Assembly (NCBI RefSeq): GCF_038025025.1
Contig: NW_027117341.1
Coordinates: forward strand, 1,426,001 to 1,490,000
Reading direction: 5' to 3'
Source of the DNA: Phyllosticta citribraziliensis
Lineage: Eukaryota
DNA length: 64,000 bases
Within the stretch, counting starts at the first letter, position 1; each line of letters opens with the position of its first letter. The position numbers and the translations under genes are program-made. Under the pieces are notes generated by a model. It was given only the letters and a program-made list of their open reading frames with translations. It had not been told where the DNA came from and did no database searches. Positions 41,180 to 50,500 of the stretch are shown here, piece by piece.

Positions 41180-43711
41180 ATGGCCTCTTCCGACCACCTC
41201 AATTGCTACACCGGGCGCGTTGCGAGCTTCCAGGAGCCCAAACAGCTCACCAAACGACGCGCTTCCTCGACCAAAAAGAAGACTGCCACCACCGTCTCAT
41301 GGCCCCACACGGCTCCATCCATTGAGGACGTACGTTTGACGCGTAAGGGCGCCCTGAGGTGTGCCTGCTAACGGCTTGAGCAGTTGGCCCAATCGGGCTT
41401 TTACTACTCCCCCACCGCGAACCATCCAGACAATGTCACCTGTTTCATGTGCAAGCACAAACTAGACAACTGGGAACCTCATGACGACCCTGCGATTGAG
41501 CACCTGGCCCTCGCGCCCGACTGCGCATGGGCAATTTCCACGAGCGTCACTCGCCGCCGCCTGGACGAGCACGAAGACCCTATGAGCGAGAAGATGGCCG
41601 ACGCGCGCAAGGCGACTTTTGTTGAGTGGCCGCATGAAGGGAAGAGAGGATGGAAGTGCAACATCAAGAGCATGGTGGAGGCTGGTTGGTGCTTCGACCC
41701 GAGTCCAGAGTTTGACGATGGCGTGTCGTGCTTTTACTGTCAGCTGTCTCTTGACGGATGGGAGTCGACGGATGATCCGACGTAGGTGACGCTTGCGGAA
41801 ATCCCCACATTCCAAAATTGACTTGTACATTCTAGGGAGGAGCATCAAAGGAGATCGCCCGGTTGTCCCTTCTTCGAGCTGCTCAAGGTGTACGGAGGAG
41901 CGCGAAAAGCGGTCAAGGGCAAGAAGGGCCGGGCATCGACTGCCTCTAGAGCCTCACGCCTATCTGTCCAATCTTCCAAAGACTTTGACACTTTTTCGGA
42001 AGCTCCATCTCTCATGTCATTGGGAGACGACGCAGTTCACAACGAAGACAGCATTTTGACCGCTACTCAAGCAGGAACCATGGCGAAGGGCAAGAAAGGC
42101 ACTGGCAAGGGCAAAGCGGCTGCAAAGGGCGGCAAGAAGAATGCGCGGAGCAAAAAAGCCACCGAAGAGCCTAGCGCAGTGGCTGAAATGGACACAGCAC
42201 TCGAAGGCGCCGAGGAACCTCTGGATTTGGGCGATCTTGAAGCAAAAGACGAAGATAGCGTCATGACGGCTGCAACCAACACTTCGACCGCTTCAAAAAC
42301 CACAAGAGGGCGCAAAGCCTCGGGCAAGGCAAAAGCCCCAGCCAAAACAACAAGGAAAACATCTAGAACCACCAAAAAGGCAGCAGAGCCTGAACCGCTA
42401 GTCTTGGAAGACCCGGTACAAAAATCTCTACCAGCAGACGATTACATGTCTCCTGCACCACCAAGCGCCCGGACGACTCGGAACAACTCGAGGCTAGAGA
42501 CTTCGTACTTGTCCCCCGCCATCCCAAGCGCCCGGACAACTCGCAACACATCGAAGCTTGAGGCGTCCTACTTGGAGCAGAATGCCACCGAAGTGGAAGA
42601 GTCGGAACTGAAACTTCCCAAACAAAGGACAACTCGAGGAAGAAAGAAGATGGTTGTGGATGACACAACTTTAATGAGCAACGACGTTACCCAGCTGCCA
42701 TCAGAGATGCAAGATGAGGCAAACAAAGCGGCGGAATTGGCCGCAGAGCAAGCAGAGCAAGAACTGGTCAAGCCGAAGCGTGGTAGGAAACGGACGAGCG
42801 ACGGTGTCCCTAAAGACGACTCGGTGTCCGTCGTAATTCCTGCTCCTAAGGAGACGAAGAAGCGCGGCAAGAAGGCGAAGCAGCCCGAAGAACCGTCTGA
42901 GCTGCCACGGGATGTCCAGGAGCCTGAGCCCGAGCCTGAACCAGTTGCTAAGCCCGCGTCCAAGCCCAAACGCGGAAGGAAGAAGCAGGTCGTCGAAGAG
43001 AGCGTTGTCGATGCCGCTGAGGAAGAACCGCAGGTCGCACACTCGCCTCAAACGAGGGCATCGACGCCTGCTCAAGATGAGAACGAAGCTCCCGCTAAAG
43101 CCGAATCATCTGTCGTCGCCCCAGAGCCCACGCCCCTGAAGGAACCAACCCCAGCCCCAAGATCTCCCACACCGCCGCCAAAGGAACAAACCCCCTCGCC
43201 GTCACCACAGTCATCAAACGCCGAGAACAAACCACCGTCAACCCGTCCCTCTGCCACTCGCCCGCCTCTGTCCACCCGCACGCCCTTTTCCGCCCGCACC
43301 GTCCGCATCCCCCTAGCCGAAACCACCCCACGCACCTCGCCCTCCAAACGCACCAACAACAACATCGGGCCTTCCGGCCTGCGCACCGCACTCCCCTGGG
43401 AGCCCGTCGACCTCGAAAACATCTTCCTCCAATCTCCGTCGACCAAGCGCCTGATGCGCGGCCTTGGAGACACCGACACGGAGGATAAGGAAAACGACGA
43501 ACAGGAGGCCGCCGGCCTCGACGCCGCGGTCCAGCGCGTCCGTCGCCAGTTGACCAGCCCCGAGAAGCGCATGACGGTCGAGCAGTGGGTGCAGTTTCAG
43601 GCTGAGGCTGGCGAGTCTCGGCTGCGTGGCGAGTGTGAGCGGATGGTCGGCCTTTTTGAGACGGCGTCGACGCGGGCGTTGAGGACGCTGGAGGGCGTGG
43701 AGTCGGTGTGA
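41180..43711 (+). CDS. BIR1: Bir1/survivin-like chromosomal passenger protein with two BIR domains
   Basis: Introns 41330-41383 and 41782-41835. BIR motifs (GFYY...DNVTCFMC...WEPHDDPAIEH...C and DGVSCFYC...DGWE.TDDP.EEH.RRSP.CPFF), KRGRK motifs and a C-terminal MTVEQWV helix. Confidence 0.92.
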
Positions 43712-46196
43712 GCTTTCGCTTTCTTTCTCGGGTCTCGCTTTCCTTTCCCCTTTATTCTTGGGCCTGGGATGCGGTTTGCTTTGGCTCTTTATTCTGTTGC
43801 GCAGCATACTAGTTGGTAACCGGCACTTGGATGTTGGCGTGGCGAGACGTGGCGTCTTGGTGGTGGTGTAGAAAAGCAGATTAGCGCAGCGGTAGTCAGT
43901 CAGTACTCACACCTTTAGTACTGTACAGTATAGTATAGAGAGACGGCATTTCACGATATCAAGACAGACTAAACAGAACTTACCTACCTACCTACCAACA
44001 TATCCTCACTCTTCGTCCGTCCCACACTGAGTGTCTTGTTCTTGTTGCGGTGTGCTAGGTTTAATCAGCAGAGTTGGTTCCCTCGTCCTGTCTCATTGAT
44101 GCTGCGCCGGTCCTAATTCCACGCTCCACACTCCCCCACTCCCTCTCTCCCACCCACATAAACGGAGAGCTGCGCAGTAGAAGGGGACAGGAAGACAGAT
44201 TTCATACAGGCCATGCACCGCCGAGGCGGAACAATCTGCTGTCCTTTCTTGATTTTGCTTTATGACATTGATGTGTGTCCTAAGCGTGCTTCGTGCTAGG
44301 TATAGAACTCAGTTGATCAACTAACTAGTGGTGGTATGAAGATAGTATGGCATTGGTGTGCCTAATGCATGAATCCACGTCTACTATCCGCAGATTTTGG
44401 ATGGCATACCGTTGTGTACTTTCTCTAAAGTATACATGAGTACGTGGCGAAAACACTGATCTACCTACCAACTTATCGTAGACGAGACACCAAGACAGGT
44501 TAAAAAGGTATGTACTACATATTGTGCGTGTATACATATGTCGAAGAGTTAAACTGTACTCTTGATCCATGTTTAAATCCTTAGATTATTCAATCTTGCC
44601 GCGAATAAGGCATGCAAAACATTATAGATAGATAGGATGTTACGAATACAATGGCAGTCTGTCTACAGTTACAGGTACATTTACCATACATGCATTTAGC
44701 TGTGTAGCTAGTTCGCTTGCGCTTGCGCTTGCGCTGCTTATTCTTGTTGTTGTTGTTCTCGACAGTGGGAGAAGGAGGTCGACAAAGGGAAGGGAAGGGA
44801 AGCCAGTCTATTCAAACAAAGATGGTACGAGATAGGAAAAGGAGAAGGGGATGAAAAGGGGGATGAAAAGAGAGGTAACAGTCTGTTGTCAGTGATATAC
44901 GGCGCCGGGAAATGACGAGACGGAACATGGAAAAGCAAAATAGGCGCCTGTCTCTCCCCTTTCAATCAATCGGTCTGTCTGTCAGTCTGCCGTGGTGTCG
45001 ATTCACCTCATTTTCCTCTTGCGCCACCAACTCGTCCCATGAACCCCCATTGCCTCAAACTCCTCTCGACCTCCTCTTCCCTGCTCTGATTCTCCGCGTC
45101 GTTTGCCGCGAGGCGTTCGTTGCTTGCTCGCCGTCTTCGAGCCTCTACTGCGCGGGTACCATTACCACTGCTACTACATCCCATCCCATCCCGTCCCCCT
45201 TGTCTGATATGACCAGTGTGTATCGCTCGGGATCGCTCCCATCTTCCACCTCCGCCGTTTTGCTTGTTCTAGAGTCGTCGCTTTCTCCCTCGCCGAACCC
45301 CTCGTTTGTTGAGCCGGATAGCTCATCGCGTCGCGTCACGTCTGCGCTCGCTCGCTTTATGGACGTATAGTACGGTATAGAGAAGTACCGTACAGTACAG
45401 CCGTGTGTTGTCGTGGTGTTCTGCCAGAAGCAAAGACGTCGGTTCTTTGCGCCGGAGGTTGCCATTGCGTTGCAGTTGCGGTTGCGGCGAACAACGATGC
45501 CACTCACCCGCTCGCTGGTCTTGAACGGTGAAAGAGGGAGGTGGCCAGCTAGACAGCCAGCGTACCTGCTCGCGCAGATTCTGCTACTGAGATGCAAAGT
45601 CAATGCCTGAAGATAGACACAGCAGACGACGGTGGATGGATGGATGGTGCTTCGTATTCGAGCACTCGAGCTCAAACGCGTGTGGCGGCAAAAGACGAGG
45701 GACAACGACAACGACAACGACAGCGACAGCGACGAGCGAGGACAACGACCAACGCGGCGATGACGGCGGCCGCCGGAAAGCAGACAGGAATGAGCAACAG
45801 CAGCAGCGACGTACGCGACGCAGGACACGGACAAAAAAAGCGCAAAAGGCGATAACAACAGCACCAATCAATCTGTGCAGACAGAGCGCGCGATATTTGC
45901 AATACTCGCAATCAATGGATGGACAGATGATGGCACAAACGCCGCCGCCACCGCCACCACCACCGCGGCGGCGTGCGGCGCGTGGCAGCGGACAGGAGAA
46001 ACGACAACGACAACAACGATAACAACGACGACAAAACAACAAACTAGTCAATCAGATCATCTCATCTACATGCATGATACATAAGGTGTGTTATAAAACA
46101 TGAATATAGAGAGACATGGGGGAGGGAGGAGAAAAAAGAGGTAGAGCAGGATAACCGCAAAACGAAGGAGCGGACAAGAAGAAGCGGTAAAAAGGG

Positions 46197-46237
46197 GGGT
46201 TGGTTGGTTGGTTGGTTGGTTGGTCGGTCGGTCGGTC
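46197..46237 (+). repeat. (GGTT)n/(GGTC)n microsatellite
   Basis: Tandem tetranucleotide run read directly from the sequence. Confidence 0.9.
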
Positions 46238-46954
46238 GTAAAAGGAGAGTAAGAAAGGGCGGCGCGTGAACGCGAAAGAAGAGGGCAGGGAAAAGTGATT
46301 TGAGGTACAAGTGCTGGGGGAAAACGTACGTGACGTGGGGAGTGCGTGCGGCTTTGCAGTCGCCGCCCGCCGCCCGTCGTGCCCGTGCCGTGCCATCCAT
46401 CTGCCTAGGTGTCGGTCTGCCTGTCTGTGCTGGTGGTGCGGTCTGTCTATGCGTATGTATGTATAAAGGGACGTAAGGATGATGATGAGGATGGTGTTGG
46501 TGGTGATATGTACGAGGTCATGTAACGTGACGCTGTCGATGGGTGTGCGGGAGATACCCCAGGGTAATTCCCTCCCAACGAGGCGCTAACAAGCAGGGGA
46601 TGATGGGGAAAGAGGGAGAAAGGAGAGGTAGCAAAAAGAAGAAATCCACCACCCCACCCCGTGCGGGATCCGGTAAAGAGGCCGACCGTAGCCGTGGCGC
46701 AGAGTCTACTACACCCACGGGCTGTTTCTCTCGTGCCGAATTCGTCTTTCGTTCTATAAGCGTAAGAAAAGAGGGAAAATAATGGAAGGGGAGACAAGGA
46801 AATAGTGTAAAGAAATGAACGGAAGAGGCCAGGAAGGTGGAGGATCGAGGGCAATGTCGGGCGATTTGACAGCGGAGCCACAGAAAATGAAGTGTCGTTT
46901 GAATGACGACCAAGCAGTGAATGTCTCACACCACACTCAGCAGCAACGGTAGAC

Positions 46955-47546
46955 TTAGGCAACAAAGACCCAGCTCAGCGCATACACTACGCACATCAGC
47001 AGAAACAGCCCCATGCCCCCCAGCCGTACCGCCCGGCTCATCAATGCCTGTTGCTGCTTTTGCGCAAGTGCCAGCCGCCGCGAGGAAGTGCTACTGCGGC
47101 GACTGATGCTCAAGCTGGGGCCGTCGAGATCTGGGTCCGTCAAAGCTTCTTCAACGAGCGTGAGCTCGTCAAATGTCCTGCTGCTGATGTTGCCGCCACC
47201 GCTGCTGTTGTCATCAACCGTCTCCCATGCAGCTGAATCGTCGTCGCTGTCCAACTCCCACGGACGTCGGTCGTCCCCAGCGACACTGCATGGAGAATAG
47301 GGAGAGTAGGCGGTAGGAGTCGTCGCATCGTCGCGGTAGATGTAGCCTTCGCCGTCGAGGTCGAAATCGTCGACGTCAAAGTTGCGGCCGTCAAAGACCT
47401 TCGGCTGCTCCTTCATCCCCCGTTGCTCCAACTGAACGTATCGCCCGAGACCATCTTCCTCTTCGTCATCGCCGTATCGATCCCACCAACTCAGCCTCTT
47501 CCGATGTTTCCCACCACCGCCCTCCTGTCGGTGGTCCTTAGGCACG
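46955..47546 (-). CDS. Candidate alternative terminal exon of kinesin-1, or a separate 153-aa tail-anchored protein (ATG 47416)
   Basis: Frame open from about 47641 to 46955. Acidic, protein-like sequence ending in the hydrophobic stretch LGGMGLFLLMCVVYALSWVFVA-stop. Confidence 0.4.
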
Positions 47547-50500
47547 CTGGTTAAAAAACCAGGAGCTTCGTTTCGACGGTTGCTCAGGGCTCGCAATGGC
47601 GGCGAGGGGGCCGGCCTCAGCGACCGCACCACCACCCCTCAGCGGCTTCGCAATGCGGCTGCCGAATGGCACGCCAGAGCCCGTTGGGGAGCCAAGACCG
47701 CGCGTGGAGCCGACCTTGGCGGCCTCGAGCCGCTCCTTGACAGCAGTGAGCTGCGCTTCGAATCTGTTGAGGCAACAACTGTAGTTAGTCAAGCGGGTCT
47801 TCATCTACGTACACGGAAGAGCGGTGCGGTGACAATGGACGGGAGAGTGGAAAGAGAGTTGGGGAAGCGAGATATGAGGGGTGTAGTGGGGACGGAGGGG
47901 TAGGCAAGGGGGACGGAGATGATGTAGGGTGAAAGAGGTCGGTGTTTGAGGAGCGTTGAATGTAAGCATTGTATGAGATTGATTGCTCCGCCCGAAAAAG
48001 TGGAGAGAGGACTGGGGAAAGAAACAAATGCTGGGCATGGACGTGCCTGTGATTCGCCGCAGTGAGCTTCTCCTGCGAGTCTTGGAGCAGGTTCTCGAGA
48101 CTCTGGATACGCTCGTTGCGCGCAATGAGCTTGCGCTCGGCAATGGCGACTTCCTTCTTGAGGCTGCTGTTCTGCTCAACCAGCTGGCGCTGGACGACGG
48201 TGAGCTGCTCCAGGTTGCGCTCAAGGAAGGCCATCTTCTTCTGCTGGGCGCGGTTGTTGGATGTCCGCAGAACGTTGTTGTACTGTTCGCGGGTCTCGTC
48301 AAGCGAGATTTCGAGTTCGACGACCTGTATAGTCAAACACCCCGGACCAGGGGCGCAAAAGATTAGCTATGTACTTCACCAACGGCGATGCAGCTGAGGC
48401 GATATACCCTTTCACATCGGTTCTGCAGATCCCGCATCAGGCTCTTCTTCATGGCATCAAACTCGGCAATCTGCTGTTGCAGCGTCTTGCCGTTGACAGC
48501 AGTAACGCCGTTGGCCCCGTTGACGGCGGCGCCGCTCTTGAGACGCTGCTCCATCTCCTCCGTCTGGGACCTGAGCTGTTTGGCCTCTTCCACCTTGCGC
48601 GCAAGGTCCTCTTTGAGCTCGGTGATGAGGTCGGCTTGGCCATCCTGGCGAGCGGCATAAGCATCATAAAGACGCTGCTTGACCTCCTCCACGTCAGCCT
48701 CGCTAAGGTTGCGTTCGAGTATTGACTCGTATTCCTGCTGCACACTAGCAAGGCGCTTTTCGAGAGCCTCACGGCGCTGCATGTGAGCCTCGTCGAGCTC
48801 TCCCCGCTCCGTGACGGAAAGCTCCGCCTGGCGCACGATGCCCTGCGTCTCGAGCAGCTTCTGTCGAAGGTCGCGCAGGGAGTCGGGTGCGACGATTTCG
48901 CCGCCGGATGTGATTGCAATGAGCTGATCCACCTGCTCGATGGCCTTGCGGATATTCTTCTCGTTGTCGGAGAAAATCTCACCGCCGAGGTCAAACCCAG
49001 CCATCATCTGGGCCATGCGCTCAGCCTTCTTCTTCTCTTTCTCATCGAGGATGGCACCGGCTTCCTTTGCGCTCATCTTCGCATCCAAAAGTTGCTGCTT
49101 AATCTCGTCGAGCTCGGTAGTCAACTCAGAGTTGGCTTCCTTGAGGCCGTCCATTGTAATTTGTGCCTCCTTGGCCTCGAAGTTGATCTTTTCGACTTGC
49201 ATCTTCAGGTCGTTAATTTCCGAGTTGAGCTTCTCGTTGTCTTTGCTCGTCTTGGTGTCGTGCTCCTTGAGGAACGACAGCTCCTCCTTTGCATCTGCGA
49301 GGTTCTTCTCCGCCTTTGCAATCTGCGACTCCTTGTCCGCCAGCTGATCTTGCAAGTCATTCTCGCGACGGAGGAATTCTTCCTTTTCATCCTTCTCGAG
49401 CACTGTCGGAGTTGCCGCTCTTTCAAGCTCTAGCCTGGAGTCTGGCCGTGACGGCGTCTCAGACCTTCTCTTGACACTGTCCACTGCGGAGGGAGTCTCG
49501 GCACGCTTCTCTGCGGGTGCCTTCTTCTTTGGTGCCTCAACCTCAATGGCTGGGACCCACTTCTCCTGCGGCACCGGCTGGCCAGCACGCCATTGCTGTA
49601 CTTCGTCCTGTATATTTGAGATGTATTCGGTGTAAGAAGTGACTTGGGTTTGGGCCTTCTTAAGCAGCGCTTTGAGTTCGGCGGGAGACAGTTCGGCATT
49701 GACCTTGGCCTTGTTCTTGATGGATTTGGCACGGACACCGAAACGCAAGGTGCTCACGGTTTCGGCGTCGTTGTAACTCGAGGGCGAACAGTTGATGACT
49801 AGCGTTGTCCGCGAGTTACCACCCAGGGACTCTTGCAGGATACGCGTGAGCTTTGAGTCACGGTAAGGAACGTGGGTGGATTTGCCGTCGGTCAGCGCGT
49901 TGATGACCATACCAAGGGCACTGAGACTCTTGTTGATCTTCTTGGCCTCCTCCAGAGTCTGTCCAGAAGCGCCAGTTTTGCCGACCTTTTCCGAACCTGC
50001 CAAATCGACCAAGAAGAGCTGACCAGTCTTGGCCGAACCGGTATCCATGTTCTTTTGCGAGACGGTGATGACGAAGATGGAGTGCGAGCGCGAGGATTCC
50101 TGGTTCATGTTGGTCGCGGAGACGGCTCGGGCCTGCCCACCTCTCCGCATGACCTCGTAAACCTCCTGCACGTTGCCCACGTAGACTTCCAACAGGCCCT
50201 TGACGTAGACGCCCTTGTTCTTCTCTTCGTGGACGGGCAGGTTGTCATTTTGCGGGGCCAGCAGATCGCGGATCCTTTCCATGTAGATTTCCATGTAGCT
50301 GACGCGAACCGTGTACTCAATGTTGGAGGGAGAGACCAAGATGCTGGCAAAGATTTGCTCGACGATGCGAGGTATTATACCCTTGTTTTCCTCGTCGTCA
50401 ATGTCAGAACCCATCATGGTGTACGATTTACCAGCACCGGTTTGACCGTATGCGAAAACGGTTCCGTTGTAGCCATTGAGGATATCGTCGACTGTCGGGC

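Follow-up and report, generated by a model that had tools for sequence, protein, structure and literature searches.

An open reading frame across the kinesin-1 stop codon of Phyllosticta citribraziliensis may encode a separate tail-anchored protein made without an AUG

We analyzed a 64,000-nucleotide (nt) window from Phyllosticta citribraziliensis (RefSeq assembly GCF_038025025.1, contig NW_027117341.1, positions 1,426,001 to 1,490,000 of the forward strand; all coordinates below are positions in this window), in which the stop codon of a kinesin-1 gene on the minus strand is overlapped by a second long open reading frame (ORF). This frame is very probably a real, lineage-restricted, and previously unannotated coding sequence for a tail-anchored protein. 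The reading that we favor, with a probability of roughly 0.55, is that of a separate unannotated protein of this kind, made without an AUG from RNA shared with kinesin-1. Such a protein would be ~196 amino acids (aa) long, acidic, largely disordered, and tail-anchored, and its gene would occupy a second frame toward the 3' end of the kinesin-1 transcription unit. Coding in this +1 frame would start on a non-AUG codon at or near GUG 47545, 5 nt ahead of the kinesin stop.

The frame is open from stop to stop for 227 codons (47638 to 46955, minus strand), is shifted by +1 relative to the kinesin last exon, and extends 585 nt beyond the kinesin stop. An earlier reading made from the letters alone (the sequence-only reading) had described a 226-codon frame that overlaps the last kinesin exon and runs about 580 nt past its stop, in close agreement with what we find. 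The conserved region, from GTG 47545 on, is in the +1 frame and shares 8 nt with the kinesin coding sequence (Table 1). Among 5000 dinucleotide shuffles of the 1 kb downstream, 0.16% were open for at least 196 codons, and shuffles of the ORF itself remained stop-free in five out of 5000. The caveat raised earlier, that long ORFs occur by chance at this GC content, loses its force when only 5-8 out of 5000 shuffles stay open over 196 codons. GC content also varies with codon position within the ORF (0.64/0.46/0.69), with a third-position value of 0.69 versus 0.72 in kinesin. Coding on the plus strand was considered and rejected: no overlapping plus-strand ORF is longer than 113 aa, apart from one of 155 aa that meets the ORF only at its start, and the splice orientation is minus.

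For comparison, fungal kinesin-1 loci were collected from metagenomes with the tail exon as query, and the best 80 of the 283 confirmed were used. The last exon was located in 78 of these and the stop in 75, while 63 have at least 450 nt past the stop. In these 63 control loci, off-frame ORFs that cross the stop continue for a median of 43 nt (187 at the 95th percentile, 306 at most), and none of the 63 has a comparable ORF behind kinesin-1. This suggests that the ORF is lineage-restricted. A tblastn search of the 80 loci with P0002 and P0003 (the latter a relative of the ORF product, see below) gave a best E value of 0.29; since no locus encodes a relative, the ORF is not a general feature of fungal kinesin-1.

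Five related proteins were recovered: P0003, at 87% identity (195 aa, identical at 169 of 196 residues), and a more distant clade, P0004 to P0007, at 43-46% identity. P0004 came from a HMMER pass over 1.84 billion representatives (two matches in all), and P0005, P0006, and P0007 came from a profile search (five matches in all); a metagenome scan with the ORF alignment yielded 420 pattern matches, none of which was confirmed. Despite many in-frame insertions and deletions (indels), the distant clade has kept GG[LM]GLF[LM]L.C[VI][VL]YALSW, RKRLSWWD.Y, the acidic Trp stretch, F[DE]E[LM]T[LI]VE, and RRSS..S.R. The best conserved part of the family is the terminal helix, which is present in all six members.

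Two of the RNA data sets described below, X6 and X7, carry a relative that is ~95% identical, for which 40 of the 123 entries in the substitution comparison are listed. Seven of the ten listed ORF substitutions are synonymous, compared with ~23-27% expected (P 0.002-0.006). Read in the other frames, the same ten listed substitutions include two or three synonymous ones in four of five frames, and six in the antisense frame. All 12 of the listed indels (of 19 in total) fall behind the ORF stop, at 46536-46780. On sequence comparison, the ORF shows purifying selection. The sequence-only reading had raised the prospect of an ORF with a terminal transmembrane (TM) helix conserved behind kinesin-1 in related genomes; the ORF with its terminal helix is indeed conserved in the five relatives, with a synonymous excess against the X6/X7 relative, and does not extend to the 63 other loci.

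In the distant clade, the N-terminal 100-odd residues of P0004, P0005, and P0006 correspond to the kinesin last exon in the +1 reading, so that both the position and the frame of the ORF behind kinesin are kept in the two clades. Residues 16-110 of P0004 align immediately past the tail exon in many unrelated fungal loci (42% over 76 aa for L070/L071), and the string SKLSSRPSRSGSRRR is, in our own reading, the +1 reading of FEAQL..VKERLEAA. On this sequence evidence, the positional linkage of ORF and kinesin is weak, though suggestive: chance alone would give the same frame in one of two or three cases, and 14 of the 63 control loci have a +1 frame of at least 100 codons that crosses the stop. 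Separately, we observed that the intronic stretch from ATG 47804 to the branch point (47784-47804, minus strand; MKTRLTN) reappears as MRTHLTN in residues 1-7 of P0004. Such conservation of intron sequence is unusual; the ATG is in the kinesin frame here and in the ORF frame in P0004.

The predicted protein has a sole hydrophobic segment, its last 21 residues. In Kyte-Doolittle profiles (19-residue windows), hydropathy peaks at 2.32 over residues 178-196 of 196, windows that start before residue 150 score at most 0.08, and there is no N-terminal signal peptide in the profile of the 196-residue protein. AlphaFold2 predicts a terminal helix at residues 176-195, ending one residue before the C-terminus, with a predicted local distance difference test (pLDDT) score of 90 for the block, and a juxtamembrane helix at residues 157-169. 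The rest is predicted to be disordered (mean pLDDT 50.6, below 50 in 127 of 196 residues), and the net charge is -14. As modeled, the ORF product fits the definition of a tail-anchored protein, a single C-terminal TM segment. Both the acidic linker (47251-47210) and the terminal hydrophobic helix with its tail-anchor pattern, noted earlier from the letters, are thus confirmed, the helix by both hydropathy and AlphaFold2. Our guess for the membrane entered is the endoplasmic reticulum (ER), because there are no basic residues after the helix. A Pfam search of the ORF product returned no families.

Two further features of the protein were considered. The N-terminal motif KRLSWW (within 47480-47503) resembles the kinesin C-terminal KRSSWFF (47553-47573), which lies ~20 codons upstream in the other frame; this resemblance may be chance. 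Readings of WETV as an LC3-interacting region (LIR) and of FDELT as resembling a two-phenylalanines-in-an-acidic-tract (FFAT) motif were rejected, as the hydrophobic positions are lost in the P0004 clade.

RNA evidence came from four runs (X2, X6, X7, and X10), all assembled contigs and representing at least three organisms, which were aligned to 45600-48800 at 80% likeness. In X2, from the same organism, record 13 (4347 nt, zero differences) covers 46477-47763, 48047-48322, and 48406-48800. This contig carries spliced kinesin-1 unbroken through its stop, followed by the whole ORF, and reaches 480 nt behind the ORF stop. Record 23 of X7 (4296 nt), from a second organism, has the same spliced kinesin and ORF structure, as does X6, in two pieces. 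X10, from a third organism (organism E), has the spliced junctions, and its contig coverage excludes 46135-47739. Spliced kinesin RNA and the ORF thus co-assemble in one contig. The junction 47763/48047, with intron ends GC..AG, is present in contigs of all four runs, which confirms the GC donor at 48046 that had been proposed from the letters.

Where coding would start is constrained by conservation. Between the upstream stop of the frame and the ATG at 47416 there is no in-frame ATG, only near-cognate codons; those in 47546..47638 are GTG (three), CTG (two), TTG, and AGG. GTG 47545 has an A at -3 and lies 5 nt before the kinesin stop. Because the conserved RKRLSWWD part has no in-frame AUG before it, translation would have to begin on a non-AUG codon at or near GUG 47545. 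Judging by the aligned sequences, an AUG start is not conserved across the family. P0006 begins MTN, evidently on the TTG of the branch-point TTGACTAAC (our own reading), from which it seems that the ORF caller accepts TTG and GTG.

A rival at this point is an ordinary small gene of 153 aa, in which ATG 47416 would be the start codon and the upstream conserved stretch would serve as a 5' leader or as an element of the kinesin 3' untranslated region (3'UTR). This is the first in-frame ATG, the 18-codon ORF that ends on it as ATGA could feed re-initiation, and P0007 is called as a short form from an internal Met in one species. However, P0003 has Q in place of the Met at 47416, and its next Met comes only 27 residues before the C-terminus; in P0003, the 43 codons upstream show no less conservation than the remainder (six differences in 44); and RKRLSWWD is retained in the distant clade. 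We therefore regard such a gene as improbable. The sequence-only reading had offered, as its alternative, a separate gene on a dicistronic RNA or with an embedded promoter. This comes near to the reading that we favor, except that the 153-aa start is wrong, since conservation extends 43 codons upstream of ATG 47416 and the Met is Q in P0003.

Returning to the favored reading, the ORF would be translated as a polypeptide of its own and inserted in a membrane; a separate polypeptide is the probable product, rather than an alternative kinesin tail. Two routes could lead to it. In the one that we prefer, tentatively, ribosomes that finish kinesin at UAA 47540-47538 would restart nearby on a bicistronic mRNA. 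In the other, which is about equally likely, a shorter nested transcript would arise from the CT-rich last intron or the last exon and would be translated by near-cognate initiation. In this species, both routes would depend on a non-AUG codon near 47545 as the start.

Several points weigh against this account. Re-initiation after an ORF of ~930 codons is normally very inefficient. Upstream of the kinesin stop there is no TGGGA like that of a termination upstream ribosome-binding site (TURBS), with two copies downstream at 47513 and 47485, and RNA folding around the stop gave nothing notable (z -0.12). The contigs cannot show one molecule with both ORFs, nor where RNAs start, and assemblers often merge adjacent same-strand fungal genes. 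The synonymous count rests on the ten listed substitutions, with 83 more entries outside them. The leading M of P0003, P0005, and P0006 is uninformative, as the ORF caller seems to accept GTG and TTG; in P0004 and P0006 an in-frame Met follows closely on the end of kinesin (P0005 has Thr there), so that clade may use ordinary AUG initiation. Finally, P0007 (115 aa, on 40 contigs) begins at an internal Met, and the N-terminal part is therefore perhaps not needed, or disrupted, in one species.

A stop, a frameshift, or an intron may break the frame in the P0007 species. In the sister of P0007, P0005, the frame is open as far as the kinesin exon.

Bicistronic messages are known from filamentous fungi, where natural and engineered bicistrons with a second ORF translated by re-initiation have been described, including the operon-like IGG1 pairs of Glarea lozoyensis and the IGG6 system (PMC10352335). 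For Fusarium graminearum, 914 polycistronic long-read transcripts are reported, and polycistronic long reads are given for 321 loci (bioRxiv 10.1101/2021.11.08.467853). As described there, these are two same-strand ORFs, and here too both ORFs are on one RNA contig. In contrast to the kinesin locus, the described fungal pairs have a short spacer, and the second ORF is understood to have its own AUG. The kinesin locus has an 8-nt overlap, a +1 frame, and no AUG before the conserved N-terminus, and its two ORFs are seen on one RNA in contigs only.

Viral termination-reinitiation is closer in geometry: the accounts of it describe non-AUG restart codons as tolerated near the stop (PMC3542737; PMC2699510), and, as with the proposed start at the kinesin locus, the ORF1 stop and ORF2 start of calicivirus VP2, influenza B BM2, the UAAUG of hypovirus CHV1, and the victoriviruses are given as lying within a few nt. 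However, the viral systems, as described, need an upstream 18S-complementary TURBS (UGGGA core) or a pseudoknot, and the kinesin locus, a cellular gene, has no TGGGA upstream of its stop and no notable structure around it.

The acidic stretch also resembles known motifs. Tryptophan-acidic motifs of kinesin-1 cargo adaptors (SKIP, calsyntenin) bind the tetratricopeptide repeat (TPR) domain of the kinesin light chain, and fungal kinesin-1 has no light chains. Like SKIP and calsyntenin, the ORF product has an acidic Trp stretch (DDSAAWETVDD; DDWEDTDDD in P0004) in a disordered cytosolic region of a predicted membrane protein. Unlike them, it faces a motor that lacks their partner, as the light chain is absent from fungal kinesin-1. 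We take the Trp-acidic resemblance to cargo adaptors as a lead only. The binding of SKIP to the kinesin-1 light chain is described in PMC3240744.

The boldest version of the favored reading would make kinesin-1 mRNA a cellular bicistron in which a non-AUG restart overlapping the stop yields a Trp-acidic, tail-anchored receptor of the motor, or, as a variant, a minor fusion product through splicing or frameshifting. We consider this version unlikely. In a narrow literature search, we found no published account of a tail-anchored partner encoded behind fungal kinesin-1.

A different proposal, the one put forward in the sequence-only reading, is that the ORF is part of kinesin itself. The GC donor at 48046 would sometimes be spliced to an acceptor at 47547, which would replace the IAK tail with the 196-aa tail and give a membrane-anchored kinesin-1. 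Its phase arithmetic is correct: the donor and the CAG/C acceptor at 47547 are in phase. The GC donor is unusual (GT in 52 out of 52 intron-bearing loci elsewhere), the length of the intron is exceptional, no AUG precedes the conserved N-terminus of the ORF, and the ORF is found behind kinesin in the same +1 frame in the distant clade too. A natural kinesin with a C-terminal TM segment of about 23 residues that serves as a membrane anchor is described in Dictyostelium, Kif9 (PMC11816917), which is an analogue of the proposed motor. However, Kif9 is described as a kinesin-13 with its TM segment in a single constitutive ORF, while here the TM segment is in another frame behind a stop, and no fusion was found.

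The RNA contigs speak against this splice. The junction 48047/47546 is absent from the contig joints of X2, X6, X7, and X10, which show only the canonical 47763/48047, and record 13 of X2 (word depth about 2300) is unbroken across both proposed splice points; this is weak evidence, as contigs drop rare variants. As had been noted from the letters, the branch site for the distal acceptor is poor, with no CTRAY within 70 nt, whereas the canonical acceptor has TGACTAAC, 21 nt upstream of its AG. The CAG of the distal acceptor encodes a Gln that is conserved in the kinesin C-terminus FFNQR, which explains its presence. A search for a fused kinesin-tail protein of 399-2000 aa matched none of 2788 candidates, which is also weak evidence, and no long fused protein is on record. 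A membrane-anchored kinesin-1 made by this splice thus finds no support here, and we consider it improbable.

The same reading had suggested a +1 slip, which would work as a programmed frameshift at UGG UUU UUU AAC and add the tail-anchored region to kinesin-1 with IAK retained. The final 31 codons of kinesin are open in the +1 frame, the ORF has no AUG, and, in our own reading, tRNA-Phe re-pairs perfectly after a +1 slip on U6. However, there is no slow or rare 0-frame A-site codon at the slip site, and TTTTTT is likewise found in 7 of 47 distinct kinesin-1 genes that lack a downstream ORF. The T6 run is not unusual, because kinesin here uses TTT for 7 of its 21 Phe codons. The unremarkable fold around the stop gives no stimulatory structure, an Rfam search at E up to 1 gave two chance-level matches far below gathering scores, and the missing long fused protein counts here too. 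Such a frameshift is very improbable.

It is just as improbable that the ORF is untranslated and its open frame a by-product of a conserved 3'UTR in a GC-rich genome: there is no protein-level evidence of expression, no Pfam family, and the relatives are ORF-caller products only, but the frame is kept open at 43-46% identity through many in-frame indels, and the synonymous excess, the tracking of GC with codon position, the shuffle tests, and the position of all the listed indels of the close relative behind the ORF stop speak against it.

Table 1. Features of the kinesin-1 gene and of the overlapping ORF, with positions in the window.
Feature	Position	Strand	Details or basis
Conserved coding region of the predicted tail-anchored protein	46955..47545	-	196 codons from GTG 47545, stop TAA 46957-46955
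Upstream part of the open frame in the kinesin last exon	47546..47638	-	31 codons, no ATG
Motif RKRLSWWD	47480..47503	-	kept in five family members reaching this far
First in-frame ATG	47414..47416	-	residue 44 of the conserved region; 153 aa from here
Out-of-frame ORF	47413..47469	-	18 codons from ATG 47469, second ATG 47454; TGA overlaps ATG 47416 (ATGA)
Acidic stretch DSDDDSAAWETVDD with conserved Trp (W[EK][DT] in relatives)	47210..47251	-	alignment
Predicted C-terminal TM helix GGMGLFLLMCVVYALSWVFVA, 21 residues	46958..47020	-	hydropathy, AlphaFold2, invariant columns
Transcribed region behind the ORF stop	46477..46954	-	X2 record 13; X6/X7 records 15, 16, 23
Kinesin-1 main exon	in 746-codon open frame 50603-48363, exon end 48408	-	ORF translation
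Kinesin-1 penultimate coding exon	48047..48324	-	92 codons, tail coiled coil, ends ...LTAANH + 2 nt (phase 2)
Last kinesin intron	47764..48046	-	283 nt, GC-AG, pyrimidine-rich
Kinesin-1 last exon	47538..47763	-	IAK region, C-terminus ...SKRSSWFFNQRA, stop TAA 47540-47538
Proposed distal acceptor TTTTTTAACCAG	47547..47558	-	in kinesin codons W-F-F-N-Q; T6 tract + CAG

The limits of the kinesin-1 tail exon were taken from the RNA contig joints. In an alignment, this penultimate exon (48324-48047) shares 90-99% identity with its counterparts in 26 other fungal loci. The C-terminal motif KR[ST]SWFF is common to the window gene and other fungal loci, and the C-terminus FFNQR is widespread among 56 distinct fungal loci. 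The last intron is found elsewhere in all 52 distinct intron-bearing loci, where it has a GT donor and measures 46-228 nt (median about 60). If this intron is read through here, the frame of the upstream exon stays open for ~87 codons, up to a TAA within the branch point. Five contigs (L009, L010, L018, L060, and L061) look like kinesin-1 cDNA in that the last intron is missing from them; in L060 the preceding intron is missing too. The sequence 3' of the stop in these contigs spans 320-2260 nt (only 18 in L009), and that of L060 enters a convergent gene. Fungal kinesin-1 genes may commonly have long 3' regions.

Some observations concern the region behind the ORF. In X2, a separate 1891-nt contig covers 45600-46506; it shares a 30-nt overlap with the kinesin contig, whose word depth is about three times as high. 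One contig end runs into sequencing-adapter letters at 46506, meaning that many fragments end exactly there; this could be an RNA end, or a second transcript on either strand. A loose end of A12 at 46132 in X7 was rejected as a 3' end, as it is on the wrong strand for the poly(A) tail of a kinesin transcript. The ~3.2 kb between the ORF and a convergent BIR-domain-like gene on the plus strand (which ends at 43711), that is, 43712-46954, is without a long conserved-looking ORF. It is partly transcribed, and its low-complexity, A-skewed part at 45.6-46.1 kb is matched by many unrelated high-depth contigs.

If the ORF is translated, it would be a conserved coding gene, overlapping the stop of a housekeeping motor and begun without an AUG, that annotation pipelines have missed. 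It would then offer a natural test case for how fungi gain access to a second frame, whether by re-initiation, a near-cognate start, or a nested promoter, and it would show the origin of a new membrane protein in the long 3' region of an old gene. If it is merely a small neighboring gene, the lesson concerns annotation. That the ORF holds its place behind kinesin-1 in two diverged clades suggests a testable idea, namely that it is functionally linked to the motor; were the kinesin-1 mRNA a true cellular bicistron, the motor and a membrane anchor would be produced together from one message.

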